A stretch of 64,000 nt of DNA from Moniliella sp. 'wahieum' (GCA_003971905.1 RSEE01000029.1:124001-188000); one strand, 5' to 3'; positions 1,146 through 57,190 are shown, counted from the stretch's first letter. Made by a program: numbers and translations. Notes: a model not told the origin generated them from the letters alone.

Positions 1146-1709
1146 GGATGTGTCTGTTGTCCATGAACTCATTTCCACTTCTTTGGGGTCACCTGACCTG
1201 CCGGTCTGACCAGCCTCCCTCCTCTCTTCGTTTGCCTGTGATGGTTTCTTCTGAGCTACCTCCTTTACATTAACAGAGCTGGCCATTTTCTCCTGGTTTA
1301 CTTGGTGTGCACGTAACAACTGCACCTGTCATTATACTGGGAGTGGGGTATACACGGCATGCAGCGTGCCGCACTTCAAGCTTCATCGATCATCCTTCAT
1401 CGATCATCCGAAGCACCCCTCTCGTTTTGTGGATGCATGGGTGACCAGTGACATGTGACATGTGACATGTGACAGGCCGAATGAAGACAAGTTGAAATGT
1501 TTCTAGCGACGGAGATGATGATCAATCAACCAATCGACGATGGACCCAAGCTTGGCGTGGAAATTGAACAGCTTCAAGCTTCAAGCTCCCCCGCCTGATG
1601 GAGAAGAACGAGGTGCGATTTCAACGGCAGCAGCCTTCTCCGTCATCGCGTCACCGCCCTGCTCCATCTCCCTCCTCCCCACCTTCACCTTCTGCTGTGC
1701 TCGGGGTCC

Positions 1710-2487
1710 ATGGCAATGAGGACGCTGCACGTGGCATATCTGGGTCCGAAGGGCACATACTCCCACCAAGCCGCTGCAGAGGCCTTTGCCCCCCTCCAAG
1801 CCGGCGCTGCCGTGGACTTTTGCCGCGTGGGAACCATTGGTGAGGCCATCTCTTTCCTTGATGAGCCCCACATGCACGAGGAGGAAAGGTATTGTGTTGT
1901 GCCAATCGAGAACTCCATCTACGGACCAGTGAAGGAGACTATCCAAGCGCTTGAACTCTCGACTGCACCCCCCTGTCACCCTCCCAAAACGCCTACTTCC
2001 ACACCTTGGACATGGGAGGGGCAAGATTGCGTCCTCCCCCCGTGTGATGGGGAGGCACGTAGAATCGTGGGACACGTTCACCTCGCGATTCAGCATGCTC
2101 TTCTCGTTTCCCAGCCGAATTGGGACCTTGGGGGAGACGTTCTAGCAAGGGTCAGGGCGGTAGAGAGTCATGAACAAGCGTTAGGCCAATGCCAGGCCTA
2201 CCTGTCCGCTCACCTGCCCCACGCTACGCGTGTCCCTGTGGCCAGCACGGCGCTGGCGGCTTCCCATGTGAGAGAGGAGGAAGGGATTGCAGCTATTGCC
2301 TCGCCCTTTGCCGCTCAACTCTATGGTGCTTGTGTCTTTGCTCAAGGCGTGCAGGATAAAGGGGAGTTGTTCCCCTCTCTTCCCAGGTAATAGCTGGCTG
2401 ACTGACATTTGTTTGGACCCAGCCAACTCGACACATTTTGTTGTTTTGACCCGCCATCGGGACCACACCTTCCAGCCGTCGCCTTAA
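1710..2487 (+). CDS. PHA2: Prephenate dehydratase (catalytic domain only; no ACT domain visible)
   Basis: VAYLGPKGTYSHQAA, VVPIENSIYGPV and SHEQALGQC motifs; probable intron ~2362-2422 (CTGAC branch, CAG acceptor) joins to ANSTHFVVL; true start may be slightly upstream. Confidence 0.85.
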
Positions 2488-2747
2488 CCCACGATGCTTT
2501 GTACCTGTACATTCATACCCTTCCATCACATTTTGTGCGTTGCTGTGCTCAATCGGTGGAAATGCACACTTCACACCCTCTACGTCTCAACACTCAAATA
2601 ATCAAGGGAGATCAACAAACGTAGCATGTGACAGGTAGATGGGTATACATGCCCAGCCGAAGTCCAATTTGGGAAGTAAGGAGAAAGAGCAAGGAAAGGG
2701 AACAAGAGAATATGAAGCAACAGACTGGGGAGAGAGGTATGATGACG

Positions 2748-17285: not shown

Positions 17286-17779
17286 GCATTCTTCCGCCGT
17301 CTTCTCTCCTGCTGCTCCCGTTTACCCCCTCCTTTATCCCCTTCCCCCTGGACCATCAACGCCACGGCCAGTCGGGCCCTTCGTGGAGCCTGACAGCTTG
17401 TCTTGATACCTCGTCTCTTCTCTGTCTCGATCACTTTGGGCTTGATCCTTCTTTTGTTCCCCTTTCCAACTTGGACCAACTTTTCCTTTTACCCATCTCT
17501 TTTCCCACCGCCCACCTTTCCCTCCTAGATCCAGCTTTAGGAGACAACCTCGAGGTGATCCACTGTCATTTTTTCCCATCCTCCCTACTCTGCTCGTCAT
17601 GGTCTTTTAGATTTCCTCCAATCGCGATCAACGATCTTATGGTGCAAATCCAGGTGTGTTTCGGTCTTTTACTTCGTATAGTTGCGTTCCCACTGTCCAT
17701 CCTGTCTCTGTCTCTCCTGTTCCTGCCAAAAAGCTTTGCGAATGATATGGATTTGGTACGGTGCCGATCGAGGCTTTGT

Positions 17780-18281
17780 GACTAGTGACTCCCCTTCCCC
17801 TTTCGAGGCAGGGGCGAAGGGCGCCACTGATGCCAGGGGGCGCGGTTCTCTCCGCTGTCTTGAGTAGAAGCCATCATGCATATGTTGTTGTCGATAACCT
17901 GGGAGAGGCGGGTGTTGGCCCACGGCGCTGCTCGCGTTTTCCGTGACGCTGGCAAAGGCCAAGTCGAAGAGCCATCTCGAGGAAGCATCGAAGAGTGTTA
18001 CAGCAGGAAAACAGCATGTTGAGACGACGCCATACTTCCACCACACCTCGAAAATCGAGGCTGTACAGATAACTAAGGTGACAGCACAAATGATGATCTG
18101 GGAGGACACGGACGTATGTCTTGGAGACTGCCATCATGACCCCCTGGTCCCCTTGAATGCATAAGAAGGAGTTACGGGGTTGGGGTAGCGAGGTACGTGA
18201 ATATATGGCAAGCACGCCCGCAAAAGGCTGCATCCCACTATACGGGGTCCGATTTACAGCACATAGTCGGTACAAGTACAT
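17780..18281 (-). CDS. Hypothetical small membrane protein
   Basis: Hydrophobic segments (QPFAGVLAIYS; IIICAVTLVICTASIFEVWW) in overlapping minus frames with a possible intron; no family recognised. Confidence 0.3.
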
Positions 18282-19437: not shown

Positions 19438-19973
19438 CGCAGGCGATGGCGAGCACAGGCACCGGGATGGCTGTGACGGCGTGGAGCCGCGCGGATGGCA
19501 GGATCATCGATCATCGATCACCACTGAGATCATCAATCAGCGTAGCGCAAGGCTGTCACATGTCACATGTCACATGCATGTCACAGGCATCGCATGTCAC
19601 ACAGTCAGTCCGCCGCCCACCCCTGTCCCAGCCCAGTAATTAGGCGGGGGCAGGCCAGGCGGAATGGACGCACCAATTCCTCTCGCACGTGAAGCTTGAA
19701 GCCTGGGTGGAGGGCGGCGCAATGGCGGAAGCAGCCCGCGGACGGGCCACACCAGGAACCCCAAGCCGACGCACTCCCGCTACCTCGTGGGGGACGGTGG
19801 TACATTGCATCCTGCTCTACATGAGCTACCGTGGCTAGCGAATATTATTCCTGTCCTGTGGGAAGGACAGCGATCGACCCTTCGGGGAACAACGCGCCAG
19901 AGAGGGAACCTGCGCTACCGTCGCCACTCCCCAAAAGTGTGGCGTAACATACTCTCAGCACAAGTCGCACACT

Positions 19974-24745: not shown

Positions 24746-25269
24746 GCGCCATTAGTACGCATTACTCATGTCCTCAGTACTCGGTCTCCGTACCCAGTAC
24801 ATTCACCATTGCACACTGGGCACACGGCCAGTCACCGGTCACCGCACCGCTCACTGGTCACTGGTGAGGCTCACCGGCAACCCCACACAGCGCACAGGAA
24901 CCGGCCGAACCAGTAACCCACCGGTGGTGTCACCGACTGCCATTCGTCAGCACGCTGATCGCCCGACCACCTTCTTCTCCCTCCAGTCCGCGGGACCACC
25001 GGCCACCCTGGCCCACCCCGCCTTCGCTGGCAGAAGATTCTGTCTCACACACATCCCGTCCCACGCCCCCCATTCGCCCCTGGAACAGCACGCCAGCCTC
25101 GCGGACAAAGTGTGGACACTCTGTTGTGCCGGGCGCCGTCGCGGCGCTTTCAGCATATATAGTGCAAATGCATGATGTATGAAGCAAATGACGCATGATG
25201 TTGCTGCCTGCGATCCCGTGCCTATCGCGCGCTACCCCTGCCGTTTTGGCTGTCGCCTTTTGGGCCGTC

Positions 25270-26760
25270 GGCCTTAGGCCAAAGCCTTAGGCCTTGGGCC
25301 TCTAATAACGTGTTTTTAACTCCTAACATGTAACGCTTGCCATGCTTGCCACATCCCAGGAAGGCGACAGTCGCGTGGATGGCCGAGGGCCGATCATTGA
25401 TCATCGACCAGGCTATCAAGCTCAATCCTTAATCAAGCTTCAAGCTTCAAGCTCCTTAGGTCGTCTCGAGGCGGTCCTCCCATGAAGTATCCACTGTATA
25501 GCCATGTGGACTGGCAGAACAGACCCCATCTTGGCTCAGCTCAACGCTCAAATTCACAGTGAACTATTTCCGAATGAAAGTGCTCGCCGCCCACCGGCCC
25601 CAGGCCCCACCCCTCCAAGTCGCGTTTAGTAACATTTAACATTTAAACCGGAACGGAAGGTACCCCAGGCTTAACCCCCCAGGCTTAACCCCCCCCGGAT
25701 ACAGGATGAAAGAATCGCTGAGGGCAATGCACATTGCACTGCAGGACAATCGATGGGTGAGGCCTAAGGCCTGAGGATGAGTAGTCGATCACGCGATCAC
25801 GGGAGATGCCTAAACCGCGGTTGTCCCTTAGCGCCTTGGCGCTCGGCGCTGATTACCTCAGGCCTGAGATCTGAGAGAGGACAGCTACGCTTGCCTAGCT
25901 ACGGGGGCGATTGCACTTGCGTAGGGCGGAAACAGTCAGAGACAGCTTCGTGTAAGCTGCTGAGCCTGAGTACGCTCGAGTACGGACGATAGTCCAACCT
26001 TGAGTGCAAGAAAGAGGAGCGGAGGGGAGAGGACGGAGCGCGACAGGGCGCAACAGGGCGCAACAGGGTGCGTCGGTATACAATCGGCAGCGCGCGATTC
26101 GCGGAGGACTGTAGCCAGTTGCGCTTGCCAGGCCAATGAAGTTAATGAAGCTTGAAGCTTGAAGCACTATGTGCCGCTGACGGGTGTGATCTGAGACCAC
26201 TCTGAGACCCGAGATCGGAGGTCTGGATTGCCATGCGGCTGGACCCTAGGCTAGCTTGGCTAGCCTCCGCGCAAATCCTTCAAGAAAGGACCCGCGTGCG
26301 GCCTGGTGCGGCCCCCGCGCGCGTCGCTACCAACGCCACGAACGGGCGGGTTTTATGTGACGCCAATAACGGCGTGGGACATGTGATGCATGATGCATGA
26401 TGGAGTGGCGCTTGGGACTAGTGACTAGGTGACTAGGACTAGTGACTCTTGACGCGTGACGAGTGACTATTAACGCGTGATTATGAATATGACTAGTGGC
26501 TAGGACGCGTGATGCAGATGTGCATGATGATTGACTTCACTAGTCAGTACAGTCAGTTCTTAGTCAGTAGTAGTGACTAGCTTGACTGGTGGTGCATGCA
26601 TGATGCTGTGATGGATCTGAGATCTGAGGATCTAAGAAGAGAGCAAGCTATGTTTTCTTGGCTTGTCGCGGCCAAGTATCGGCTGACGTCAGCGCGTCAG
26701 CATTGAAGCGCTTCAAGCTTCAAGGTTGGAACATGTTGAACGTTGAATATTGAAACGTAG
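25270..26760. repeat. Field of short 7-bp-period palindrome arrays upstream of the C2H2 gene
   Basis: (AAGCTTC)n at 25435, (AAGCTTG)n at 26148, (ATGCATG)n at ~26386, ACTAGTG at 26417, AGATCTG at ~26620, AACGTTG at ~26739. Confidence 0.8.
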
Positions 26761-27714
26761 TTGAACTTGTCTTCGCTCACCCTTGTTGTATTGCCCAAAC
26801 GTCTTCTCCTTTCCCCTCACCGGGTCAGTCCCTAACCACTGCTGTTCGCTTTGAACCTCCCCCAAATTGCTCTCCTTTTGGTCTTCTCGTCGGTTCCTTA
26901 GGTTCTTAGTAGACCCCACAACACGCACGATACGACAAAGATCAAGAACGACGGTGTCCCATCCCCGACCTGCAACTACCAAGGCCACAATACACCCCCG
27001 TACTCCGCCGCGACACATTATGAACATCATCACTTTTATCCGCCCGGACGCTCCCTCTGCTCCGCAGTACCCTCGGCGATACTATAAGGTCCTACCCTTC
27101 TCATAGAACTTCCTGTACCTCTCCTTGAAATCACACTCCTCTTCCTTCAGCACTTCGGTGATCAAGCTTCAAGAGATTTAATGTTAGAAACCGGGACAAT
27201 TGACCGCTCAGTGATCACACGGAAAACAAGCGCAAGAAAAAGCTGTGGCCTGACGGCCCAACCCAAAAAGATCTCGTTAAAGAGGCGCTAAAAGAGGTCG
27301 CCGCACCGATCTTCTACTTCTCAGGTACAAAGTCGTGGAAGTGTGAGCTCAGTGGATCGAGCTGGTCGAGCCCTCTTTGACTGAGCACTTGGCAGTTATC
27401 GCCCCCGGTGGATGATTTGAACAACTGTTGCATCCCCCCAGGGCTCGTATAATATATCGAAATGGGAGTCGTAAAACATTTCCAAGAGTACGCAGATACC
27501 TTCATGCGCATAACCATTGTGGTGTAACCACACATCACGGATCGATATGGTATCAAATAGACATGCCAGAGTGGATATACGGGGCTGCAAAATCTGCAGA
27601 GCCGAAGTCGCACTTCCCTGTCTTCTCGTGTATGTCCTTCTTTCAGTCTATAGACTGTGGCTGTAGATCCTCAGGTTCCGCTAGGGGACACTTCACCTTA
27701 GTTCTACTGATATA

Positions 27715-27941
27715 GTGTTGAGCCATCGGGTGGCTCGTGCTTTGGCTAATGTCTCCCTTCAGTTCCTTCTCATGCCGGGGAGCTCTGTTTTCTCTCCTGT
27801 TTTTTCCTTGTTCAGCAGCTTATAGCCCTGGTGGCGACTCGCTGCTTGATGTTCCTCTGTAGGCGTTGCTGGTTGGCATGACCACTACCACCACCAGTGC
27901 GATTGCATCACCCTCAAGGACCATCAGGACTCCAGGTCTCA
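27715..27941 (-). repeat. Dispersed ~220-bp repeat, copy 1
   Basis: Reverse complement matches 52599-52818 over its length (TGAGACCTGGAGTCCTGATGGTCCT...CCTACAGAGGAAC...CCAAAGCACGAGCCACCCGATGGCTCAACAC) and partly matches 60967-61170. Confidence 0.9.
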
Positions 27942-30900
27942 TATAGGCCCGGCAGATCGAAATAATTCCTACATCAGTTGAAAGGTCCGGTGTCCATCTC
28001 TTGGCAGCTGTGCCTCCTTCCTTTTTGTGAAGAGGGCATATATAATTCTTCAGTCCGCTCATAGATGTATCCACTCCACCCGCCTCCCTTTTCTCCATCT
28101 CACCTTTCCTGACACAGTGTCTAATATATAGGCCTCTGGTATGACGCTATTATGACGACTGTGCCCCACAGGCGGTGCTGTCGCTGGCCAAACTCCCAGG
28201 CAGCATGATTTCGGAGAAGTTTTTGATGTTTGCTGTGGAGAGAGGTTTTTGGAAACGCGACGGACGCTCAGCGCGCGGTCAACACTCCTCGGCATTTTCT
28301 TCCCTATAACTTTTGTTTGCCTTTGACAGTAGCTACTATATATAAATACTAGTGAGACTATATAGAGTGGTGACCCTCTGATCTTCCTTGTAGGTCTTTT
28401 TTATCCCTTTTTTCCACTCAGGCGCCAAAATAAAGTTTAACGGCTTCAAGCTTCAAGCTTCTCAATTAAGCTTTTCGACGTTCCAGCCGAGTTGTGGGGA
28501 CGGGCAGAAGCTCTGTTTTTGCGCTATAATTCGTGCCAAATGCCGTCCCCGACCTAGCGAGTTATGCTCTTTCTTCCCTTCATCGACGTGAAAAGCTTCT
28601 GCGAAGGTTCTTCAAGCTTCACGCTTCATCGATCATCCACCCAACATCTCTCAGCTCAAAAGCTCCAAGCTTCAAGCTTGATGAGCTTGATGCCTGACTG
28701 AAACGGGGTGTTATCTTTAGCCTTATTGAGTTGGCCACACACGCAGCTCAGCGAGAGCCATCATGCTGAGATGGTCCTAAGTCTCACCAACGCTTCCTTC
28801 CCCAATTCAGCCGCGTGTAAATGATGCAATAGCCGTCTCAACAGCAGACAAAGCACTACCAATGAAGTGATCAATGGCCAACACACCTATATATAATACA
28901 CACGTTGCCGTACGACGGGTAAAGAAAACCCTCGTTCTGATCATCTGGGCCCAAAGTACCAGTATGGAGTGGCTTTTTTAATATGCTTTTCCATCAGTTC
29001 GAGTTGTTGCCCTACTCGCGAGACCATAACAAACCACAGTGTCTACATGGCCAGCTCTCCCTGTTATGAAATTGTACGTCTGCCCCCCCCCCTCCAACAC
29101 GTCCCGCAGAACAGAATTCAACAACCTGCAAATCCTGCCCAAAAGCGGCCCACTAATTCTTCGTCGTCTGTTCGACTTGTGTTTTAAGCATTGAAAAGAA
29201 TAGTACAAGTTTATTGGGCCCAGCACCTTTTTTCGGTCGTGTGATTCTCCGTCCCAAAACCCATACTTTTTTTGTGAATATATGCTGTATTGCATTCGTG
29301 CGAGCGAACGTTGGCAGATGGACCAGCGGAGCGTGTACCCTCGCCGAAGTGCCATAAGAGGCGAGCATTGGCCGGCGGGGGCCAACAGCGCCTCTATCCC
29401 CTCCGTTTCCATGCTCCGTAGTGGCTTTGGCTCGCACCCCCGACGAACGAAGGATTCGAAGAAGGGAGGTACGAATAAGAAGACTTTGATTCGTGCCTCC
29501 GATGCTCGAAGGAAGGGTGTGTGTGTGTGCAAGAACCCGTTTGGATGACATGTCCTACGACCGAAGGAAGGAGGGGCGTGCTGAGTATTCAAGTACTCAG
29601 TTCCAGTTCCAAGTCTGGTCTCCCGTGAAAAGGAGATGTGTACACTGGTAGTACGCTCCTTCACCCCTCCCCGCTGTTGGGAGAGAGGGGAGCCGTTCTT
29701 TGAGCGTGAGGACACGCTTGGTGAAGAGGAGCGTGATGTCACGGGTTAAGACGGGCTGGCAATCCCGGCAGAGTTTACGCGCGCCCTTCGCCTTCTTATG
29801 TCCCCAGGTTATTCAGTGGGGTCAGATTCGATCTCATCCAATCTCAGCTGAGGAGCGTCCTCTCTACCCAATAATAGAGCGTGCTCTCAGATTCCATTCA
29901 GTTCCATCGCTGCTCTCAACTGCCAGCTCGATTATCAGACTACGTATCGGAGCGACAATAGTGGCCTTTCTCCCTATAGTGAATTGAGAAAACCCCAGTC
30001 TCGTTGTTCCCCCGTTTCCATTTTGTCCTTGCGATGCTATAGTCGCCTTGTGCCCGTTTATCTTACTTCTCCGCGTTGCGCTTGTGGCAACCCTTTTGCG
30101 GCATTAGTCACCCCGTGCCTGTTTACCTTACCTTTCTAGGTTGCCCGTGCGGCAGCCGTCTCCCCTGTTTTCCTCTGTTTTCCGTCCTTCCTCTGTTGCC
30201 TTGTTTCCCTTTTAGTCCCTGCCTGTTAGCAATGGTTCGTGGCTTTTCCCTCCGGCCCATTGGCGTCTTGCTCTACTCTCCTCGCCAATTGACCAACCCA
30301 GTACAGGCAACTCCTCTCCTCTTAGTTGCTCCTCCAGCTCTCCTCGTCAGTTCTCAGTCCTCCCAGCCCAAGTCCATCCTACCTCGTTTAGCCGCGCGTG
30401 ATCCTGCCTACAACCACGCCGCCACCAGTCCCAGCCCAGCAGGAGTCTATAGCAGCGTAGGTCGTCAGCTGCCCGTTCCCCGTCCCTGAGCCCGAAGGCT
30501 TCAGACACGCTACTACCGCCCAAAGCCGGTACTACGTAGCAGCCTTGCCACACCTACAGCCGCCTCTGCTATGCGCCGAGATGCCTCTCCTTGTCCCCAG
30601 CTCCGCTCGGACCCACCAATAAGCCCAAGCGCGTACTAACTGCCGTAAGTCGACCTTAGGATCTCCAAGGGATTGTATCCCAACTACCTGGGTTGGCCCC
30701 TAGCGGGGCCTGCCCGTGACATCAGGTGAGGAAACGCCATAACAGCGATGAACTGACGGATCACACACATTCCCACAGGATGTGGGTATGATCCTTGTTC
30801 TAGATCTTCCTTGCCCCCTTTTGTGTCTCTTTCCCCTCATCACGCGTGGTCTATACCGTGTGATAGCTTCTCCTTCTCTCCTCTGGTATATAAGGCACCA

Positions 30901-33354: not shown

Positions 33355-34961
33355 GCCCCAATTGGTCATCAACTTCGTTACATCTACTCCCATGTCCGCC
33401 AGCACTACCCTTCCTGCGGAACCGAGTTCGCCCGAGATACTAGAGATTCCAGCAGCGCATCAGCCCCATAACTGGACGATCTGATGTGGAGGATGGGATC
33501 CAATTATGTTCTTCTTCTCTCCTTCCATTTTTGCCCTTGGTTCCACCCACTTCCTGACTCTCTTCCTCGCAATTTTCCGTCCTCATTTTGTGACACAACA
33601 TCTTTTCCATCACCTAAAGGAAGAGTGCTGATGTATTCCAACGGACTACTGTCAGTTCGATAATAGCACTCTGATGGATGACACATTGATTCGCATATCC
33701 TGTTCTTTCCCTTTGTCCTTCAGCTCTTCTTGCTCAATAAGTCGGCTCCCATATATGGAGCTAAAGCCGGCACGCATAGCCTGACGCTATACGGTTGGAA
33801 CACTATATATATATGTTTGACCACAGCAAACGGTCGCCACCTCGCACGTCTTCTCTATCCACACGGTTGCAACCTTCCCCATGAACAACACCTGTATCCC
33901 CCCTGATTCTCCACCGTCACGACATGAAGAAGACAAGGAGGACCACCGGGCCTACGGCCCGGTCAGCTGGGGCTTCGCCCCAGTTGCCGTTCCCCCTTCG
34001 CCACCTTAGCCACCGTTCCACCGTCGCCACCGTAGCCACCGTTCCACGCTGGAGAGGAAACATAATATCACCGATGCATACGGGTGGCAGGAACGTGGCA
34101 CCGGTCGCTGATGTAAAAGCGTGCAGATCGGGGGATGCGCAATATTGGGCGATCCCGCTGGTTCCTTGACCTTAGTGACGCCCCCAAGTAACCCCCGCAA
34201 GATAAACGGTTAGGTTTAGACGTAGCGTTCCCCCTGTCCCAGCCTTAAGCTCTGTCAATGAAATGGACGTGATCTGGGGATAATGCGCATTGGTGTGGCC
34301 AAAGAGTATGAACGGATAATGAACGAGACACTCTTGCAATAATCAGTACTCAGTGGGGAGAAATATGACAAAAGGCAAGGCGCAAGTATGTGCTCGTGAG
34401 AGGGCAGTGATTTCTCTCTGACCTTGTGCGGGAAAGTCGGCTCGCCTAGTGCGCCGTTGGGCGGAGGGCGATAACTGTGGGGTGTGAGCAACACTTGCCT
34501 AGTGGCCTATGCTGTTGGCTGTTCAAACTCGTAGTCTCTCACAGTGTGAGACCCACCCCGGCTATACGACGGTGGTACATCAGGCACAACAGCATTGTAG
34601 GAAGTGCTCTCTCCGTAGCCAGGGGGAATGGGGTGACCGGTGAGGTAGCAGTATAGTCGTTTTGGTTTGATAATGAAGATATATATCTCAAACGCCTCTC
34701 AATATGAGGGGCGCTTGATGCTGCCCAGGTGTCGGGGGCTTTTTTACTGCTCAAAAGGGTTCGAAGGTAAACCTATTAAAGCAGATACCTCGTCCATCCC
34801 AATCTTGCTTCTGGTCTCTGGTCTCGCCCACATTCATATCCTCTCTCTCCTCTCCCATCGCCAGCCATCCCAACGTCTCTTGATCGCGCTCGTCCCTTTG
34901 TCTGACCACCACACCCCAACCCGCGCCCAATCCCGAATTCAAACACGAGACCGAGCACGCC

Positions 34962-36117
34962 ATGGACGGAACCGCGAATGCTGGAAGTGCACACCATTCG
35001 AACCCTGACATGCAAACCGACTTTCGCGACCGGTGCATGCATTGGCTCCGTCCCCGCATGGTCCAGTTTCGCTCCGAACTATGGGGCATCAAGGACCCTT
35101 CCGGCATCAACAGTTTGAATCAGCTCCAGGTCGACACAATTTGCAAGTGTGCTTGCCAGTACGCCTACGAGGCCCTTCGGGAGTTAGTCGGGGACCTGTC
35201 ACAGGTAATTCCGGTTCGTGAGGACAACAGCCGGACGAGTGGCGAAGAACTGCACTTTTGGGCCCATGTCACAACATTTACCAACTACGTCGATGATGAG
35301 GTCCTACCCCCCCTCTTAATTTTGGCGTACATCGTCAATTTCCTTGGTTCCATTCCCAACCAGGGGATGAGGGAGGACAACAACTCCCGTACGCGCAAAA
35401 GGGAGAACATACCGCCCAATATTGTCCAACTTCTAACGAAGTCCTACAACTTGTGCAGGGCTCCTACCAAGGCTGAGCAGCGCGAACTCAGTCAGATGAC
35501 TGGGCTTAGCTACAAACAAGTTAATGACTGGGTACGCTTTGGCGGCGCTCCTCGTGTGTGAGACCAGGGGCGTGGTGAAAGAGCAAGAGTCTAACCCCCA
35601 TGTGTGGAATGTTACAGTTTCAGAACCCGGACCACCGCTCCAAGTCCTCCAGCAATAACGAAGAATCGAGTGTGAGGGCCGGGAGCATCCTCAGGCAAAA
35701 AGAAAGTGACTGAAAGTGAGAGTCAAGATCCGGGGAAAGAGGCAAATGAAGGCAGTGAGGGAAGGAACCTGGACCAGGAAGCGGATGTTTGTATGAGCAC
35801 GTTTTTCGGCGATGCGGACAACCTTGACCTTGTCTTGCAGGAGCCTTTGTGAGTTTTCCCCATATCCTTTGTTGTTGCTGTTTTGGATTCTGACCGTGTG
35901 GTGGGCATCCAGCCAGTGCAACCTATTCCCGCTCCCGAGTTGGCCAGTACTCAAGATCAGCCTAACCCCGCCGAACGTACTATCGGCTGTTATTGGCTTC
36001 CGACTGTGGATCAATTTTCCGAGTTTGTCACCGGCCATGAGTTCCCCAACTAAATTCCGGGGGGCGATTTCGGCAATTCGAACCCCAGTGACCCTGCCAT
36101 GCACACTCCCCAATGAA
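34962..36117 (+). CDS. HD2-class (bW-like) homeodomain protein, paralog B
   Basis: RKRENIPPNIVQLLTKSYNLCRAPTKAEQRELSQMTGLSYKQVNDW|FQN, with intron 35532-35617 (GTACGC..CTAAC..CAG); second probable intron from GTGAGT at 35849; N-terminal region homologous to paralog A. Confidence 0.85.
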
Positions 36118-36529
36118 GCGGTGACGCTCGCTGGCTCGACTGTTGATTCATTCGGTGCGCGGGTTGCGGAACCTCCCTTTGTTTGCTCTCTGAATCGCTT
36201 TTCCCTTGCCATTTTCTCGTTCCCTTCAGCTTGCTTGAAGGACTTGTGGCTGCCTGCCCTGCCTCTCGTACGTCTTGAAGGTGTCTGTTCTTCCTGTTCT
36301 CAAGTTGCACTTCGCAATGCAGCTAGCGTGAACGACTTTTTATGGGTGCGACTGCCTTGCCTTCTCGTAGTAATACGCATTGAAGTTCAGCTCGTGTTGC
36401 TCGTAGCGTTCCCTACAGCCACACTTATAGCACTCTAAGCATCACTAGATCCTGAATGTTTTTCTTTTTCTGTGTGATTAGTGCACGCTTCTGTTGCATT
36501 CGCTTGTGCATGTCTGGCTCGCTTCTAAT

Positions 36530-37300
36530 ATATGTCGAACGCTGCTGTGCTGAGTCCTGTGGACTTTTGCGTGGGAGGTGTGGATTTTGTAGCCGGTCGT
36601 GTCTTCGGGACCATACATCACGTGCGCAGCCTAAGGCAGAAAACATATCCAATAAGGTTGAAATAGCACCATCCTCCAGATCCTCTCTCACTGTGGCAGT
36701 ACTGTATGCAGACCAAGCTTCGCCACGTTTTCCGACCACATAGTAGTAATGTTGCACAGTTGGAGAGCCAGCTGGAAGATGTGTTGGCCGTGAATTATGA
36801 CGCGCTCTTCAAAATCTACATGAAATTTCTTCGATGGATCCAAAGGGACGGGAACCGTCAAGGTATGATGATAGGACGAAGAATCACTTTGACATGCTCA
36901 TGATCTTGCCTCTCTGTATGAGAGAATGCGGCTTCCCTCTCTACTAGTACATTGCGCCCCACGCACGTGCTGCGGCCAAGGGCCGACGACTGCCTTTTAC
37001 CACACTTTTGTTGCCCCCTTGGGTACACGGCGAACGCACTTCGACGCGGCGGCGCAAGTGCTGCCAGAAGATTGTGAGGGGGGAAGAGTGTGGGAATGAG
37101 CTACTCCAGAAGCTCCCAGGGCCGACGGTGGCGCAACCACATGCGCAAACTGGTTGAGCGCAGCAATATATCAACCACACTTTGCTTTCCTCGTTGCCAG
37201 CAGCCAAGTGCCTCAACTATACCCACAGGTGGGTTCAGATTTGTCTCCAGCTTTGCATCCTCTGTGCCGTTCCTCGTGCAACAGCAAATGTGAGTGTGGT
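36530..37300 (+). pseudogene. Possible decayed third HD2-like gene
   Basis: Helical ORF fragment MQTKLRHVF...VAQLESQLEDVLAVNYDALF, then RRTHFDAAAQVL and SYSRS...MRKLVERSNIS in shifting frames; no WFxN motif seen. Confidence 0.25.
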
Positions 37301-37859: not shown

Positions 37860-39860
37860 TTGACTGTGACGAGTCTCTTTGGATTAAGGCCTAAGGATCC
37901 GAGATGGGTGGCGTTCAAGAACGTTCAACGTTGAACTAACGTTGTTCACTGACTACACCACGCGCATTCGTATGTCTACGCGCGCGACATCCAGTTTGGA
38001 AGCGAAGGGCGTCGGGGGCCAGAGGATCCGGACCTGTGGCAAGCCGGTTAGTCGCCTTCGTCCCAGCGTAAAGACAAAGGGAACAGTATAAGATAGTGAA
38101 TCATATATCCTTTGGTCTGGCACATGTGAGCGCCAGGTAGTCAAAGCTAGTCAACGTTGAACGCGTGAACGTTCAGTTGACGTTGCGTATTAGTATTAGC
38201 CGAAGTCAAACACACGTGGTGTGTGGGGCAAAAAAAACAGACATACTTGTGACATGGTGACATGCGGCATGGGACATATGACATCACATGGTGACATGAG
38301 CGTACGTGCGCGTGAATGGACTAGTATACTCGCCTAATATAAGCGTACAGTGGATCTGAGTCGGACCGAGTAGTGAGAGTGTCTAGCCACGGTGTAGCCA
38401 CGGTAGCTATAGCTGCGCTTAAAATGTGAACTAGTAAACTAGCGACTATCTGTGACACGTGACAAAAGTGACATGTGACATGTGACAAATATCATCACGT
38501 GCGACAGTAACAAGTAAAGCTAGGAACTAGTAGAAGCCAGGAAGCGCTAAACCAGTAAGTAGCAACCAGCAAGTACTAAGTAACGACGCGGTGACGAAGA
38601 CCTTATTCGGAGGGCGTTGGGGGTAGACGAAGTACGCTCGGGGCGAGTGCTACGCGTTACGCGTTCCGGCACAGGACCTAGCAAGACCTAGCAGGCGATA
38701 CGACGTGTGCTATTCGAAAGTTCCGATTATAAAAACGCCTCGCAGATCTGAGAATCTCAGATCTCAGTCTTTCATCTCAGACTGGTATACCCGGTACTGA
38801 GTTCAACGAACGTTACGCGGTACGCGGTACGCGCGCTACGCGTTACGCGTAGGTCGGAGTACTGAGTTACTGACACGTGATGCGGGAGTACTGAACGTAC
38901 TGAGACTGAACGTGCTGAACTCAGTATTCAGTTACTTAATTCAGTGACTAGCTAGTGTGACATGTGACATGTGACATGCGACTAGAGTACTAGAGTGCTG
39001 GTCTGCTGTCTGCTGTCTGCTGTCTGTTGACGTTGCGCGTTGCTGGCCTGCATGCGACTTGGTATCGGCGGGCAACGACTAGGACTAGGACTAGCGACGG
39101 ATAATCTCGATCACCGATCATCGATCGCACAGGATGCATGCAGCATGGCTGATCAATGATCGATGATGCAAATGGCCGGTTTCCGGATACCGGGTGCTGT
39201 CGGAGCGCCAGCGACTGGTGACCTGTGACCGGTGACGGACGATGCATGATGCAGATGGTCTGCTTATTCGGAGATGGGCTGGTGCGCCAGGGCGTTGGCC
39301 TGTGTTGGCTTGCCGCTTGCCGGACAGAAAGACCCTTGTTGGATCCAAAGCAAGGTGCTTCCACGGGGTTTCCGTTTCCGTGTGACATGTGACATGTGAC
39401 ATGTGACATCAATGCATCCGTGCATGTGTGCATGTGCATGAGCATAGGCACTAGTCACTCGGCACCAGAACGCACTTGTTGGCTTGAAGTGTGACTAGTT
39501 GACGCGTGATGTACGCAGTCACAGTCGCGAATCACTCTGCCATCACCGATTCCAATGGGAGAGGCAGAATGCAGAACAGCAGAGCTGCGACAAGGCAGCC
39601 CATGGTTTGCGCACACTCGTGTTGTGTACTGGTCCTCAGACTCAGCCCGAGTGCTCGTCTGAGCATTGCGATCTGAGATCCTCTGAGATCTGATATCCAG
39701 GACTGCTCAGGCTGTGCAGCTGAGCCTCAGCGTTGACTAGGACTAGCCGACTGGGGCTTGCAGCTTCCGAGGCCTGGGCAGAGAAAGTGAGTTACGAATA
39801 GTAGCCTGAAGCAAGCCTGCAGGCACCGAAGACTGAAGCTTCAGGCCCTGAAGCGTCAGG
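37860..39860. repeat. Densest field of 7-bp-period palindrome arrays, upstream of the forkhead gene
   Basis: AACGTT-C-AACGTT at 37920, (ACATGTG)n at ~38471, ~38960 and ~39385, ACGCGT-T-ACGCGT at ~38838, AGATCT variants at ~38743, AGTACT-G at ~38858, ATCGAT and ATGCAT variants at 39105-39250. Confidence 0.85.
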
Positions 39861-44554: not shown

Positions 44555-47500
44555 CGCTAAACACTCATTTATTGCAACCACTGACTTCAGGAAGAACCCA
44601 GAAGAGGGTACGTGAGAGTAGAGGAAGCCGGCCCAGGTCTAAAGAACTGAGTATGAGGGGTGTCCACAAGTTGGTCGTGCAATGGCTCGGATGCGACTGG
44701 CTGTTCGAACCTTAAATCCCGTCGCACTCGCGCCCGGTCCGGCAGGATCCCGTCTCCGTTGCTCTCGCTGGGAGTTTTCATCATAGTAGCACCCTGACGT
44801 CTTCTCCACGCGGGAAAAAGAGGTGGAGTTGATGCTTGATCACTGCTTTTCATGTTAATTGCGTCTCGTTCCTGTCGTGCAAATGCCCCGGATACTCCTT
44901 CTAAACACAAAAGCATGACTTGTGCTCGCTCGTTTGGTCCGGATGCATAGAAGCGTGTGAACTAGGGCGATGTGTCCTTTGTGGCGGAGAGCAGCAAAAG
45001 TCACACAGCTCTCACAGCAGTCCCAAGAACGCTGCCCAAGAGGGCGCATGCTTTTCTGCTTGTAGGATATTGGATGCCGAGTGGAGAGCAGGCACAAATA
45101 CGCGTCAGAGAGACTGTTAGGTTCTCGACCAGCCCCGCAACCTGCGATTAGATACAGTCCCTTGCGCCGAAGAAATGCTCGACACAACGGAGCGCGGCTT
45201 GTTGGATGAAAAGCTTCCGTCGTTGTGGTCTTTTTTCGGTAGCATCAAACCCTCAACGTGAGTGCACTGCAGTCGTATCGCAGATTCTACAGCTGCCGCG
45301 TGCACACTGTTCGGTAGTATTTCTCGCCGTTGACAGTACGCTTGGTGTTGGCGTTGGATTCTTATTAGTGTGCTGCTGGCCCACGTAATATCCGATTGTG
45401 CAAAGTTGAATGGCACTGTTAAGGGGCATCACCGGACGCTGAGCCCCGCACCTCTTCTTAAACATCTCATCCAGTCAGTCCCGTTTAACCAGCGAGAGAG
45501 AAGAGCCAGCGGACACCTTATCCATGCTGTGGATATCCTCCGTGGCCCGCCATGGTCGCATGGGCTCATCGGTGCGAAGCTTTGGGCCCATCGCGCCCAG
45601 TCTGAAGTTGGCAGAACTCTGTGCCTGCTGCGCTCCAATGCGCAGCGTCAGCACATTTGAGAGCACGGGCTGCGTGTATTAGTCTTCACCTCGCTGGAAA
45701 GTTCCCCACATTCTGTTTATACCTGTCACGAGGCACTTGAGGCCTGGTTACTTCTGTATATAAGCAACCATGTCTAAGACACGCTACTGCGGTGGTCCTT
45801 ATCGATTATCGACCATCCTGTTACACCTGTCTTCCGGCTGTTTTAACCTTTCCATATATTCCTGTCTCGCTTTTCCACCTTCTACCACACTCCTAATTTA
45901 CGACTCACGTTGGTTACGCTTCAAGCCGCGGCTACTCTCAGTAGCGCTTGCTCTTCATTATAGGACTCCGTCTGATTCTGCCTACTACAGCACGTCGAGT
46001 GTGGTAATGCCACCGGGAAACCGCGTTACCACGGAGCTCCTGGATCCCTTTGACGGGTCTGACGACTTTCGTACGCGGCTCCTACCTTGGAGGGTCTGAG
46101 CTGCAGCCTTTGCACACGCAGGCAGTCACCCAAACTCGAGGGTCTCTCCCTCGCCTCTACACCAGCCCGGTTCAACCAGGATCGGAGGCCGGATCTACCG
46201 TACGTGGCTTCAATTGGCCGTTCAAGGGTTTGTACCCCTAAACTACAGGGACTCATGGGTCCCACCTCGGGACTCCCCACCATGACAGGCACCCTCTTCT
46301 GTCAAAACTTACTGACTATAGTGGGAGACCAGAGGCAGGAACTATAGTCCACTCATGAGGCCTGAGGCCTGAGGATAGAAGATGCTGGTAGGGATGATCG
46401 ATGAGGGGAGAGAATGTACTGTAAAAGGAAATGAGAGAAGCAGGTGTTGGTGTTCATGCAGAGGAGTCCTAGGCTGCAGCTATATATAGGAAGGGAGAGA
46501 CGCCGGAGACAATAACACAGAGAGTGGGGTACGTGGGCTAGCCATGATGATGTGACCAATGTGGTTTGATCTACTTGGCCGTAACCCCAAAGTTTTCATA
46601 ATCCGTCAGGGCCATGTTGGGGGTTGCACACATTAGTTGTGGTTGTCAGTGCCGGCTCCGCATGCATGAGATGTGGGCATGATGTGTGGGATTTTGCGGT
46701 GGAGCGCATGACATGATGACGGACTTTTTCCCTGATAACAAGGGGGTGTCCTCGGTGCGCTGTCAGATGGGAGCGTACAGGAAAGGCGGGGGGAGTAAAG
46801 TGAGCTACTTTAGTTAGTAGGTGTGTTGGCAAAGACAGGGAGGTGGGGGCGCTGGAAAAAAATCGGGGGGTAACTCCAGTGACTGACGACTTCCTCGTGC
46901 GCACGGCCTCACCGACCTGATCCATCATCGACCTCATTGAATCGACGGGAAAAGCCTAGCTCGGAAACCGAGTCGATTAGGATTGTCCGCATGGGGAACA
47001 AAAAATATTGTTTCTTGCGGTGGCGATCGCAGCAACTCTGCCAACGGTGGGTGCTGCAAATGTAAATGCTTTAAGGACATGGCAAATGCGGGGTAGACAA
47101 GGCGGCCGAGGGGGAAGTTCCCGATAGTGTGCCCCACACCAGTGCTGGACCTGACCCGGCCTGTGTATATTGCCTGCGGTGCTTGCCATTCGCTGTCCCA
47201 TCAATACTAGGTGACACATGTGGCCTGTGGCATCTTGCCACATGTCACATGTCGCATGTCACCGGTCGATCACGGGTCGCCAGTCAATTTAATCGATTTT
47301 AAATGTCAAACTTCGGTCTCGCATGTCACATGCTCATCACAGTTTGGGCGTCGCTGTGCCGGCGACGAAGAATGGGCTGCTCTGCACGGTGGGGGCTCTG
47401 GGCATCGGCCAGCGTCCACCCGCAGCATGTCCACACCGCTGCACACACGTTGGTCGATCGAGACGATCGAATTGAGCTGGCTGCGGCTGCTGCGGCTGCG

Positions 47501-49122
47501 GACGCCACCGCTGGCCAGCGTGGAATAGGTGCCTTCTGCGTGGGTAGATAATGCACAATGGTTCACACAGTCTTGATTGTGTACCCCACCGGTCCCTGCG
47601 GCGCGAAGAACATCGGTCGAGATCGATAACGAGTATGCTGCCATCGAACCCAGACGTGTTGTCCACATGCACAGGAGCAAATCCATGCATGCAGCATGGC
47701 CAACCAGGGTGGGGGTGGGGGTGTGGTGATGTGCCGATGATGTGTGCGCCACGCCGGATCCACACTGCGTCCACATGCCAGGTATTTTAACGCGCGGTTC
47801 AGGCAGTTGTGCAGACAGGGTAGCCGTGCGATCAATGTGACATGTGATCGATGATCCATGGCCGGTGATGCATGTGATGCATGATGCATGATGCAGATGC
47901 AGATGGGTGCGGAGCAGAAGGGACCACTCGCCCCTTGCAGCTTGACGCGTGACGCGTGACGCCTGAGATGGAATGCCTGCCGAGCGGCAGACAGGACATT
48001 GCGTGCGCGGGGTTGCTACTTGCAAGTTACTAGCCGGCGGAGGACCCCACAGGTGTGGATAAAGCGACGGTGCTGAGTTGCCGGGCTTGGGCAGTAGAGA
48101 TTCGCTCGAGATGTTACAGATTTTTGGGGTGGAAAACGCAGTTGTCGTAGCCACATATACACAAGTCATAATGTCGACGTTTTGTCCACGTCATTTGGAT
48201 CCCGTCTTCTTTAGTACGTACGGTTACCACCTGCTCTGTAGAAAGGCACCCGGGTACGTGCCTGCCTTAGGCCTTGTTGTGTATCTGCTGAGACCCTGAG
48301 CGCACAGCGCCCTAGAATGTGGCGGGTACTGAGGCTGAGGTCAACAAACTTCAAGCTTCAAACGCTTCTTCAATAAGGTGCGGGGATATTGTGTGGGAGA
48401 AGCAAAAAAAAGGAAAAAAAAAGGTTTTACGATGTGGAATGGGCTCCTGAACGCCTCAGTTTTGGGCATCCGTGTCCGGAGGATAAAGCTCATAGAGCAG
48501 GTGTGGTTGTATGTGCACGCATGGGCTTATTTGACACCGTTCTGTGATCGAGCACACTACTTGTGATCACGATGGTTTCATGGACAGCATAGTTGCATGG
48601 AAGAGTAGACGCGCAAACGGCCGATGCTCACCGCACGTCTCACACAAAACTCGCGGAAATGGGGTGGCTTACCTCTCTCGCTCAAGCGCTCAATGATAAA
48701 ATGGGCTCGGGGAGGGGGAAGTGTCTCTTCGCGTGGATCCACGTTCGATGGACATTCGAAGAATGCATGGTAGTCTGCGCGCCGACATGGGCGTTACCTA
48801 GTAATGATGCAGATGTCACAGAGAGAGGCCCGAGGCTCTGAGATCTGAGATCTGCAGCCTGCAGCCTGACGCTTGAAGCTTGACGCTTGAAGGAAATCAA
48901 GGCACCGGTGGGGAACAGCCGACAGCTTCTGTCCTGCTGCGCACCATCACGCCGCCACTCTGCCACTGCCACTGCGGCAAATATACACTCGCTGCACCCC
49001 CCCCCCTTGGCCTTTCCCGCACGCTTTCGGCTCCAGTGGAGAGCGGCAGTCCCCCCAAAGCTGCATCCGCTGGTGCCACTCCCCTTGCACACCACCATCA
49101 CCACACTCTCTTTTTCCACTGC

Positions 49123-52818: not shown

Positions 52819-54619
52819 AGTTCCCCCATTCCCGACGCGGAGAGACCGGGGGAGAACGTGGAGGACGTGGAGGATGCGGAGAACGAGTGGAGCGACAATG
52901 CTCGAAGCGATCTCGAAGCGATCGTTGGTGAGATCAACACTCGGGTCGCTTGGCCTAGTCGTGATAGAACGAACGTTCTGTTGAACAACAAACGTTGAAC
53001 TTGGAAGGCAACCTAACGAATGGTGCTTGCCACCGGTTCTTCGTGCCATGCCCACAGGACACGTGACACTGCCACGCTGGCAAGGGTGACGTCGATGCAT
53101 GATGCATGATGCCGGAGCGATTGGACATTGAACGTGTTGAACGTTGCGCTGAATATTGAATGGGGGATTTGACACGTGTTGGAGCGGGAGGAGATGTGGG
53201 AGGGGACGCGTGATGTGTGACGTGACATGTGCAGGTGGCGTGGCACCCACTGTCGCCGCACCTCGCCAGCCCAGCTAATCGCCGGCCTCACTGGCACCGT
53301 CCATTCAATCAGCCTAATGGATCAGCCTGATCGGTCAGCATTTGATTGCTCCGGGCCTCGGCGCTCCGCAGGCCTCCGCCGGCAAAATTCCGCGGCGGTC
53401 GGTCTCACATGCATCTGGCACCCCCAGGTCTCTCGGTCCAACGCCTTGGCCCTAGGCCTGTCTGGCCCTGGGCGTTCCTACGCCCCAGATTCCAGGATAG
53501 GTTAATGATGATCGATGATCGATGATCGCTGAGCGCTGACGGACCTCCGGAGCTTTGCTTTACGGCTCCGTGGCGCCGGAGGACCGGAGTTACCAGCAGT
53601 TGTACTACTACGACGGTTGCCTGCCCAAGGGCCGTCTTCTCCGCCCGCAGCCGGAGTCGGATGGGGGAGGTGAGCATCCCATTCTGCCTTCCCGCATCTG
53701 TCGATGGCAAGAGCGAGAGTCGAGGTCGGTGTAGTCCTATCATGCATCATGCATCACGATTCAATCTCCATCGATCATCTCGATCCTCGATCTTTTTCAA
53801 ACCTTTTCATGCTCACTATAATAGCTTCAAGCATGACATGCATGACATGCGCAGCTTGCCCCCACAGACTCCAGAGCACAGGCCAAGCAGGATGTACGTT
53901 GCTGGTCAGCGGTCGATGGTCAGCCACCGAGTGTGTGAGGTTGAGAGCGTGTTGCGCGAGCGCTGAGCGGGGACGGGCAGCTGGGCGGCTGCTTGTCTCC
54001 GCAGCTGCGCTTCGTCAGCGAGCCAGCGCAGGCCGGCGCTGTAGGCTGCCTCGCCGGGGGGGCGCAGTCTCGGCCCGCCAATAGGGGCCGTCGCCCCTGG
54101 TCGACTGATCAGGCACTGAGGTACGAGGCCTGCGTCTAGTTGGCGTACCGCGTACGGCCTCACATTTCAAAGTTTAACCCCTCGCAGCGCCTGCGTCTGC
54201 CTGGCTCTGCCTCCGCGGCATTCGATGCCTCACGCAACACACACAACCCATCGCCGGGGACGCCCCACGCACGACGCCAGCCGCCAGCCGCCCGCCCGTC
54301 ACACGTCACATCCCAGCATCCCAGACCCCGTGCAGAGAGTGCCCATGGGGCGCACGCCCTTCTTAATAACACACCCTGCCCTTCCCGCCCGCGCTCCTTG
54401 CGGCAACCGCTCACCGCCACTCTGGCCCCGGCCCCACCGCACCAGTGCGGACCAACACTGACCAGGTGCGGGCTGGTGGTCCCGGCTTTTAGTATCCATA
54501 AATGCGGCCTCGCTCTCGCCATCCTGTTGTTTGCTGCTCAGCTCGGTCCGATAGATACCAGCACCAGCTAGCTCCTTTCGTTCTCGCCACCACCTTCCTC
54601 CCTCCCCACCTCTCCTGCC

Positions 54620-55988
54620 ATGTCCAGCGTTCTGCGTGCCTTTAAGAACCTCAGTTACGGCGGCACGGAGGTGCTTGTCCGTGAGGCGACAGCCAACAAC
54701 AAGCGTGATGCGCCCGTCGAGATTCTTGCCGAGCTTGCTCGGCTCACCTACACCCGCAGCGACTTTGTCGAGCTCATGCCCATGCTCGATCGTCGTCTGA
54801 ATGACCGCACCCGCCAGTGGCGGCACGTTTACAAGTCTTTGCCTGGTTCACTATCTCCTTCTCGCCGGCTCGCCTGCGGCGATCGAGTATTTCCGCACCA
54901 ACCTGTACCTGATCAAGACGCTGCGCGAGTTCCAATACATCGACAGTGCCGGCGTTGATCAGGGCGAATTGGGTACGTTGCAGATGACACTATTCAGGTG
55001 AACCTTCACATATGCGGTGGGATATTGACCCTCAGCATGGCACTTACTCCTTTTACTGTACAGTGCGGGAAAAGGCGCGCGAGATCACATTGTTGCTCCA
55101 AAGCGAGGATAAGCTGCGCCAAGCGCGGGCTCGGTTTAACGGTCAGCGTCCCCGCCGGCCCTCTGCCTCCTCCATGGATGAATCTATCCGCCCCATCGCC
55201 TCCCCGATCGATCGCCAAGCCGATGCTGCGGCTGCCCGGCGCCGTAGCGAGGCGGAGGCTGCGGAACGTAGTCGTCGCCAAGAGGAAGCTGCTCTGGCGC
55301 GTGCTCTCGAGGTGAGCCGTCAGTCCGCTGAAGCCGAGGCTCAAGCCTTGGCTCTCCGTCGTGCTCAAGCTGAGGCAGAGCAGCAGCGTCAAGCGGAAGA
55401 AGACGCTCGCGCCCAGGCCGAGAAGCAAGCGCAGGATGCGCTGCAAGCTCAGCAGCTCGAGATGGCTCGCTGGCAGTTGGGCCAGAACCAGATGAACAAC
55501 ATGTACGGCATGATGTATCCTCAGTACACGGGGATGTACGTTCAGCCTCAAATGACGGCCGCTTACGTGTCCGCGCCGATGCTTACGGGCTGGACTGCGC
55601 CGATGTCACCGAACGGCATGTCATCCGTTGCCTCTGACTCGTTTGTGGCGGGGTCCAACAACCCCTTTGCTCCCACCACGCACACTGCACCGGCGGAGGA
55701 GTCGCTTCCTGCTCCCTCGCGCACACCTTCTCTTACACTCACTCGGGATGCCCCCTCGCGCTCGCAATCGAGCGGCGAGATGCGCCCCGCCACTCCGCCT
55801 AATGGCATGCTCTCTCAGCAGACACGCACTGCTAAGCCCCCACGGCTTACATGAATCAACTCGATACTCTCTTGGCTCAGGGAGATGGCATTGACACGTT
55901 TGGTAACGCTGGCAATCAGCGTTTGGGCCACTTTGCCTATAACCGGGCTGAACTCTTTACCCAGCCCTCTGCCTCTCCCTTTGCCTAG
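54620..55988 (+). CDS. Epsin (ENTH domain, UIM, NPF motif)
   Basis: VREATANN...MLDRRLND...WRHVYKSL...NLYLIKTLREFQYID..GVDQG|VREKAREITLLL; UIM-like EEAALARALEVSR; NNPF; GIDTFGNAGNQR; intron ~54973-55063. Confidence 0.92.
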
Positions 55989-57190
55989 ACTCCTCGGCAC
56001 TTTGACAATCCCTCCGTTTCGTTTCCTGTGGACATCTTTATTCTCCTATACGTTTTCGCGTTCCCCCCTGACCCAGGTAACCCTTGGCTTGATTGCTCTC
56101 ACTTTGATCCCCCGTCCGACCGCAAATGGCCCTGCCGTCCGACCGACGGCCCCGCTCTTTTTTTCTCGTTGCGTTCTCGTCGACGTGTTTCCCCTCTGTC
56201 CTCGTTGGGCGGGCTCTGTAGCAACACTTTTGTTCTGAATGTCATCGCTGATGAATATGAATCCTTATTCGTGCTGCCCATGACAAAGCGTATCTCTTCC
56301 CTCGGTAGGATGGCAGAAATCGAGACAAAGAGCTTCCTTACCGATGTTCCAGCGAGGATACACTCTCTGATACACTCTCTGATACAGTCCTGATCCTTTA
56401 TTATACCTGCGCATGGACCGCACCGTTCCGTCGTCTGGCGCCGCGTCCTGAATCCTGAGTATGGATGGATGAGTGGAGTGGTCCCATTATGCATTCTCGA
56501 CCAGCACAGCAGGGGCACACAGGTGATTTGCTCATCAACGTCAGGCGCAGGCGGAGCCGATGCGGGCCGCGGCTAGAAGGCCGAGCGGTGGCCGGGGGTA
56601 GACGTGTAGACTGTGATAGTTCGGATGGCCCATGGATGGTAGAAGCGCAGGCGCCTACTGGTCGAGACAATCGGCTGCTGCTCCTTGCGCAACTTCCTAG
56701 TGGGGTAAGCGCCCGGTAAGCGCTCGAGCGCTTCCCGCTTCCCGCTTACCGGTTACCGCTTCTCCGTCTCCTTCTCTGTGCCATCCATTGCTCGTCCCGG
56801 TACCACACATTGTGATGCGGACATGTGGAACGCGCGCACATCACATAGCACATGTCACATGTCACAGGCCAGCATCACACGGGGCAATTTCAAAGTTCAA
56901 TGTTCAATCGACAGGCGGCGGCTGGTGCCGATCGTTGGCCGGGGCTGCCTCTCGCCGGCACAACGCACAGGCCATCCCCTTCGTTCTTCTCGCAGTGCTT
57001 GCATTGGCTCCCCGCATGACGCACGTCCTGCACGTCATGGTTGGTGCATGGTGCCTGTTTGCTGCCGCATCCGATCTCCACTTTTTCCAGTCTGGCACAT
57101 GCGGCTTCAGCTGAAGCCTCAGCCCTCCCAGCTGCAGTGTCCTCCTTCCACCCAGCATAGCGCAGCAGCTCTGGTGATGGCCATTCCTCG

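Follow-up and report, generated by a model that had tools for sequence, protein, structure and literature searches.

Period-seven palindromic repeats in Moniliella sp. 'wahieum': probable excision footprints of a Tnp2-like DNA transposon

Introduction

What kind of process leaves tandem repeats of one fixed period whose core is spelled differently from array to array? The question is raised by a stretch of 64,000 nucleotides from the fungus Moniliella sp. 'wahieum' (GCA_003971905.1 RSEE01000029.1:124001-188000; the whole stretch is called the window below), whose intergenic DNA carries short arrays in which T-N-A recurs every 7 bp around a palindromic 4-mer. A preliminary description of the window had attributed them either to a symmetry-based promoter element or cruciform, or to iterative fold-back synthesis. 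Here we report counts in the window and the genome, a comparison of two haplotypes, and a transposable element with terminal inverted repeats (TIRs) whose target has the same form. Taken together, these suggest that the units are probably excision footprints, even-centred and of the RAG-like P-nucleotide type, of a DNA transposon lineage that moves by cut and paste, with a Tnp2/CMCT-like transposase. Of the earlier proposals, a generative process as the origin of the repeats stands, pure fold-back is refuted, and a cruciform and a selected element are unsupported.

Repeat structure

The window is C29:124001-188000 of a 69.5-Mb assembly of 223 contigs. All 12 full two- or three-unit arrays listed in the preliminary description are present at their coordinates, although the one at 37920 consists of one AACGTT-C followed by AACGTT-G and not of uniform AACGTT-C, and the three partial arrays (26417, 24834 and 38858) are present as single or degenerate units. 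The general rule, T-N-A every 7 bp with any palindromic 4-mer between, is borne out by counts in the window and genome-wide. Relative to order-1 to order-5 Markov simulations (10 each), the window holds 73 TNA-palindrome-TNA units at 54 loci (simulated means 1.6-6.7) and 32 A..T hexamer palindrome pairs at a spacing of 7 bp (simulated means 0.3-1.3), which confirms the enrichment over random background. A region of 264 kb around the window contains 123 A..T/A..T pairs spaced 7 bp apart and 58 spaced 14 bp apart (expected about 6), and this class alone is in excess at distance 7, where other palindrome classes never exceed 9 pairs. Fourteen of the 16 possible cores are common in these 264 kb, AATT and TATA being rare. 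Genome-wide, a two-unit CATG array pattern gave 670 matches (reversed control 0), and four TGA at 7-bp steps gave 6469 matches versus 1204.

The repeat is direct and polar, with the same middle base at both anchors. The share of palindromic cores is 138/223 for TGA..TGA, 129/223 for TCA..TCA, 26/54 for TAA..TAA and 35/73 for TTA..TTA, as compared with 14/50 for TGA..TCA and 13/58 for TCA..TGA; the two same-middle-base forms TGA-palindrome-TGA and TCA-palindrome-TCA thus total 267 and the two mixed forms 27. Iterative fold-back synthesis in its pure form is refuted by these counts because it would flip the middle base, yet same-strand forms dominate. The mixed-strand forms are nonetheless above chance.

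Only cores of 4 bases are in strong excess, with 555 of 994 palindromic in 464 kb of C29 (chance 62); odd cores show none (103 of 419, chance 105; 29 of 355, chance 22). For two patterns, the density in this sample, with its 555 units, is about 1.8 times that of the genome; scaled accordingly, the assembly would contain roughly 45,000 units, an extrapolation from genome-wide pattern counts. Among the metagenome matches listed from one scan, a narrow test with at least 120 loci carrying an AGCT array, no other lineage with this grammar was found; other palindromic cores there were at chance (23 versus 381 non-palindromic).

Haplotype comparison

The assembly contains two collinear haplotypes or subgenomes. 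Contig C53 is collinear with C29 and represents a second haplotype (B, C29 being A), with 395 kb aligned and substitutions of 2.0% in coding and 3.8% in non-coding DNA. The arrays are not an assembly artefact; they occur in both haplotypes, with 7-bp differences in copy number. Among 3267 clean indels between the two contigs, 114 have a length of 7 bp, whereas 6-bp and 8-bp indels number 42 and 34, and the 7-bp indels peak at 5-6 bases of repeat. Perfect duplications account for 36 of 113 clean 7-bp indels, and 31 of these lie inside units; slippage presumably acts in long arrays, these 36 being plain duplications. Of the 77 non-duplicative 7-bp indels, 44 fit the form target, 2 inverted bases, target minus 2. 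The target is TNA-centred (TNA at target positions 3-5) in 32 of these, so that abTNAcd in one haplotype stands opposite abTNA-cdd'c'-TNAcd (20 right-copied cases) or abTNA-b'a'ab-TNAcd (12 left-copied cases) in the other, a net gain of 7 bp. The longer allele is in A in 17 cases and in B in 15. The same form fits only 2 of 31 6-bp and 3 of 29 8-bp indels.

Isolated units match one flank by two bases in 230 of 272 cases in A and 183 of 215 in B. Most commonly, the period-7 match covers exactly 2 bases at one end and none at the other (83 and 58 of 487, A and B together). Where neighbouring units have different cores, both outer flanks match in 21 of 37 cases, the pattern expected of two hits on a single TNA with each flank serving once as template, and at least one matches in 35 (A and B taken together, which are not independent). 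A core copied from two neighbouring bases points to a repair scar. In the 464-kb sample the copied dinucleotides are biased, with AG, GA, TC and CA over-represented and AA and TA under-represented.

Transposable element

A candidate source was found among the haplotype-specific insertions: a 4970-bp TIR element at C29:72158-77127 (L131:1158-6127), 52 kb upstream of the window and present only in haplotype A. It is flanked by two copies of GTTGATG, a 7-bp target-site duplication (TSD) centred on TGA. At the same site haplotype B reads GTTGATG-CA-TGATG, which is a TGA-TGCA-TGA unit and exactly the predicted scar.

The family comprises five full copies (about 98% identity) and three partial ends in the assembly. 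The TIRs have 66-nt arms, 89% complementary, plus terminal bases; all examined ends start with CTCACTG, so the termini are CT..AG with CAC from position 3. The 7-bp flanks are identical in four of the five full copies. The fifth (C11:228241-233089) has unequal flanks, both TNA-centred; next to it 67 bp are deleted in comparison with its empty allele, which accounts for the inequality. The site of the C35 copy is a single heptamer in the other haplotype. In all, T[G/C]A occupies positions 3-5 in 9 of 9 flank heptamers (background 0.032 per site). A 250-bp multi-copy repeat is nested in the element (L131:4132-4385), at the same place in the full copies. A truncated copy on C66 (L271) is 4% diverged from the others, about the distance between haplotypes; speculatively, it may represent a relative of the C29 copy in the other haplotype.

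We propose the following course of events. The element inserts at a 7-bp target a-b-T-N-A-c-d, with N mostly G or C, and duplicates it. On excision, a hairpin would close each flank precisely at the border of the element, as in RAG reactions, and the hairpin would be opened two bases past its tip, to judge from the products by a nuclease of the Artemis/Pso2 type, giving a 4-base palindromic overhang. End joining would keep one overhang and drop two bases of the other flank, which would yield the two mirror-image +7 products seen between the haplotypes. The A and T around every core would come from the TNA target, and the core would be set by the two bases next to that TNA, hence the many spellings. 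Each scar would form a new in-register TNA target, and a repeated hit would lengthen a uniform array or, if the other flank was copied, produce a mixed one. Slippage would then alter copy number and point mutation erode the units, as the haplotype differences suggest.

Transposase affinity

The coding frames of the element are broken at shared places in all three copies read, either by real decay or by systematic sequencing error. Its transposase nevertheless looks Tnp2/CMCT-like through a chain of matches. An open reading frame (ORF) of the element matches P0121 (E 3e-4) and also P0122; P0121 matches a gene on C34 (E 1.8e-9), whose upstream ORF matches PF02992 with an E value of 2.5e-5, under the cut-off. 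In a protein atlas, the cluster matched by the element ORF at 0.92 has DUF4218 in 11% of its members, and P0121 leads to clusters with DUF4218, Transposase_21 and Plavaka labels, such labels being carried by 11-46% of members. By eye, the minus-strand frames of L131 contain a C(2)C motif (CRPC) and an H(3-4)H motif (HNTLH), in this order and followed by the last catalytic E, and the histidine block aligns with P0121 and P0122; the first D of the D-D-E triad was not located in the broken frames of the three copies. Further motifs were matched by eye to what we take to be the Tnp2 consensus. The element is therefore treated here as CMCT-like, but is not filed as EnSpm, from which its ends and TSD differ.

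Two genes of the Tnp2 family lie among host genes. One (L273, C17:556-559 kb) matches Pfam Transposase_21 over the cut-off and has a syntenic partner on C62 (93% over 5.65 kb); the other is L272 (C34:513-517 kb), for which no syntenic partner was seen among the 40 of 619 candidates scored. No convincing TIR or TSD was found within 7 kb of the C17 and C34 genes. There is also a third, weak Tnp2 match on C127. The TIR-less C17/C62 gene may be a helper or a domesticated enzyme. It is doubtful, although conceivable, that such a fixed, RAG-related host gene, whether by mobilising non-autonomous elements with 7-bp TSDs or on its own, acts as a permanent source of germ-line diversity and writes palindromes templated on the flanks into regulatory DNA, some of them serving as new factor-binding sites.

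Alternative explanations

Several observations count against excision footprints as the origin of the units. The element copies are a handful and the fixed scars tens of thousands, so that a long history of activity has to be assumed. No intact autonomous element was found, the copies read having broken frames and the nested 250-bp repeat. The transposase assignment is indirect: 16 ORFs of the element had no relevant Pfam match, the PF13960 profile had no match in the genome, a search for longer homologous proteins with the element ORF returned nothing, and one with P0121 added nothing. Among the units, 42 of 272 isolated ones match neither flank; among the non-duplicative 7-bp indels, 33 of 77 fall outside the predicted form, and 12 of the 44 that fit lack a TNA-centred target. 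The direction of these indels is unpolarised (two haplotypes compared). Six switches from one palindromic core to another were seen, most of which look like register shifts and one of which is unexplained. The family's own targets lean to TGATG/CATCA, which is narrower than the 14 common cores, and the pair of filled site and scar is a single case; orthologous sites for the C23 and C34 copies were searched for and none was located. Finally, only 0.7-0.8% substitutions separate the C29 copy from those on C34 and C35, whereas its flanks differ from haplotype B by 4.8-7.3%. The copy is thus younger than the haplotype split, and under the footprint explanation one must assume either an old donor of recent daughters or independent hits at the same site in both haplotypes.

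A break or replication process without a transposon, in which the 5-base duplication and 2 inverted bases are written directly at TNA, either by a nuclease of the host (perhaps a TIR-less Tnp2 enzyme that has been domesticated) or by a short template switch, would account for scars that outnumber element copies by thousands to one. It also agrees with the Tnp2 gene found at corresponding sites of the two haplotypes (C17, C62), around which no TIRs or TSD were detected, and with a second one on C34. We nevertheless consider it unlikely, because by itself it leaves unexplained why a TIR element has the TNA-centred 7-bp target at all nine flanks and why a scar lies opposite a filled site, and because the +7 duplication requires a 7-bp staggered strand-transfer step.

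A selected promoter element, with TGA/TCA half-sites or a cruciform recognised by a dimeric factor or a chromatin feature, was the other earlier proposal, and it draws on where the units lie. According to a self-trained coding model of the 464 kb (135 genes; rough, with some genes missed), units per kb amount to 0.01 in coding sequence (2 in 169 kb), 2.21 in divergent, 1.94 in tandem and 1.18 in convergent gaps. They are concentrated in long gaps, and across tandem gaps, in fifths from the end of the upstream gene to the next start, they number 0.5, 1.5, 3.3, 3.3 and 1.4 per kb. They cluster upstream of regulator genes, with a mild strand bias (G on the sense strand in 109, C in 74). The location in non-coding DNA and the lean to the promoter side, which is broad and has no fixed position, agree with the preliminary description, and the three convergent gaps it named as empty hold no unit; a restriction to promoters does not follow, since convergent gaps in general contain units. 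Under the footprint explanation, the near-absence from coding sequence is due to selection, and the lean to large promoter-side gaps probably reflects target access and tolerance.

The units are under no strong constraint and are not conserved. Between the haplotypes, with 125 of 553 non-coding A units unaligned and excluded, they differ by 0.036-0.038 substitutions per site (flanks 0.044, all non-coding DNA 0.038), and 177 of the 428 aligned units (41%) overlap an indel. The slightly lower rate could be read in favour of function, but the units were chosen as perfect, so that neutral decay may give values down to half the flank rate. None of five arrays folded better than its shuffled versions (z -0.86 to +0.64), which leaves a cruciform role unsupported. 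Since the cores also copy the flank, a selected binding element is very unlikely as the origin of the repeats; co-option of single units as binding sites is possible.

Footprints of hAT7 elements are highly improbable. Families of this kind with 7-bp TSDs exist in rust fungi, as an excerpt of PMC12730594 reports, and hAT excision proceeds through hairpins (PMC5873905, in part), but the hAT palindromes described there centre on the complement of the bordering base and would give odd cores, which are not in excess here, and the element found looks Tnp2-like, with no resemblance to hAT. A search for the hAT domain PF05699 gave no match, but neither did its positive controls.

It is scarcely credible that the arrays are an assembly artefact or arose by ordinary microsatellite slippage of heptamers made of a palindrome plus one base: the perfect duplications within units speak for slippage and the many single-base errors in the assembly for an artefact, but slippage is unable to make 5-base duplications with 2 inverted bases or to confine arrays to A..T palindromes, the AGCT-array loci of the metagenomes have other palindromic cores only at chance, and units both shared and distinct occur in the two haplotypes. 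Slippage is refuted as the origin and kept only as an amplifier of existing arrays.

Two further candidates were rejected. Footprints of the Tc1/mariner type consist of target, a short palindromic remnant and target, the core coming from the element ends; here CTAG is the only core that the ends could supply (17 of 267 palindromic cores), and the observed cores copy the host flank. Kyakuja (KDZ) elements have 7-bp TSDs and no TIRs according to an excerpt of PMC12730594, whereas the element here has TIRs.

Units and genes in the window

The units of the window are given in Table 1. Pfam supports the labels prephenate dehydratase, V-SNARE, forkhead and aldehyde dehydrogenase for the neighbouring genes; the C2H2 match is below the cut-off, and the ORF tested for the epsin gene had no Pfam match. 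The best named match of the amidohydrolase is from Sporisorium (54% identity), followed mostly by other basidiomycetes, which places the fungus among the basidiomycetes, possibly near the smuts. Conserved genes with frameshifts, such as the aldehyde dehydrogenase (57200-59060), probably reflect long-read errors. A 3.9-kb block (33050-36936) with a homeodomain ORF (34884-35561) is missing from haplotype B at this place, and 27760-31590 aligns poorly to B. Beside a tRNA-like gene whose anticodon is unassigned (1060-1146), haplotype B carries a 399-bp insertion, which ends in the manner of several other insertions and by eye is Helitron-like.

Table 1. Palindromic units and arrays in the window, with positions counted from its first nucleotide.
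Position	Units	Remarks
1376..1406	Mixed array TCA-AGCT-TCA-TCGA-TCA and a further TCGA unit	On both sides the flanks agree with two scars at the same TCA, one left-copied and one right-copied; 21 bp absent from B
1449..1472	TGA-CATG x3	No CATG unit here in haplotype B
1574..1583	TCA-AGCT-TCA unit	Upstream of prephenate dehydratase ORF; haplotypes differ by a 7-bp indel
17779..17788	TGA-CTAG-TGA, single birth-type unit	Unduplicated target in haplotype B
19504..19572	TCA-TCGA x2 and TCA-CATG x2	Between V-SNARE and amidohydrolase genes; both TCGA units missing in B
19690..19699	TGA-AGCT-TGA, single birth-type unit	Unduplicated target in haplotype B
24832..24841	TCA-CCGG-TCA unit, decayed neighbours	Upstream of C2H2 ORF
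25324..27171	Dense cluster, 12 loci	Cores CATG, AGCT, GATC, TGCA, CGCG, CTAG, ACGT, ATAT; includes 25433, 26146, 26384 and mixed array 26737
28446..28635	Three TCA units (AGCT, AGCT, TCGA)	
34343..34643	Two units (GTAC, CCGG)	Upstream of homeodomain ORF
37885..39693	Cluster, 9 loci and many decayed units	Upstream of forkhead gene; TGA-CATG arrays at 38469, 38958, 39383
45799..48883	Cluster, 9 loci	GGCC x2 (missing in B), mixed CATG/TCGA at 47838, TGCA x2, CGCG x2, GATC, AGCT, TCGA
53100..53756	Cluster, 5 loci	TGCA, ATAT, TCGA x2, GCGC, TGCA x2
56746..56864	TTA-CCGG-TTA and TCA-CATG-TCA units	Upstream of aldehyde dehydrogenase gene
60196..61172	Two isolated units	No 2-base flank match (old or chance)

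Comparison with known systems

This study links a genome-wide repeat class to a mechanism. The feature itself is real; it looks like a known kind of scar, left at remarkable density and regularity by what appears to be an undescribed CMCT variant. If this is correct, hit-and-run transposition has rewritten the intergenic DNA of a genome in which almost no elements were left, a change that repeat annotation would miss; the TSD range reported for the RAG-related CMCT clade would widen from 2-5 to 7 bp; and the scars would provide in vivo evidence for RAG-like even hairpins in the excision of a Tnp2-type element. They would also constitute one birth route for microsatellites and palindromic sites, and a record in which excision and end joining in a fungus can be counted. 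In searches of open-access literature, no description of this repeat class or of an EnSpm-like element with a 7-bp TSD was found.

With the CMCT clade (EnSpm/CACTA, Plavaka, ESTA, Transib), the element shares TIRs with subterminal repeats, C(2)C and H(3)H transposase fragments, and a chain of homology to Pfam Transposase_21 and DUF4218. It differs in its CT..AG ends and its 7-bp, TNA-centred TSD, since the elements of the clade, as given in an excerpt of PMC12730594, have mostly CA..TG ends and TSDs of 2-5 bp. CACTA excision leaves footprints, whose form is unstated in the parts available of the two sources, and an animal CACTA-like element has a 2-bp TSD (PMC6379663, PMC1636069). With Ac/Ds (hAT) and hAT7 the element has in common palindromic footprints derived from hairpins and, in the case of hAT7, the 7-bp TSD, which is also reported for Kyakuja (excerpts of PMC5873905 and PMC12730594); the hAT footprints, however, are odd-centred and heterogeneous.

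There is a further likeness in form to the P nucleotides of V(D)J recombination, produced from RAG hairpins by Artemis, which in an excerpt of PMC2175297 opens hairpins mainly at +2 with 4-nt overhangs dominant. Both have an even palindrome at the exact border, two inverted bases and a 4-base palindrome. V(D)J coding joints, as far as that excerpt describes them, mostly lose their P nucleotides and vary, whereas two stereotyped +7 products are seen here, flanked by TSD halves and fixed in the germ line throughout the genome.

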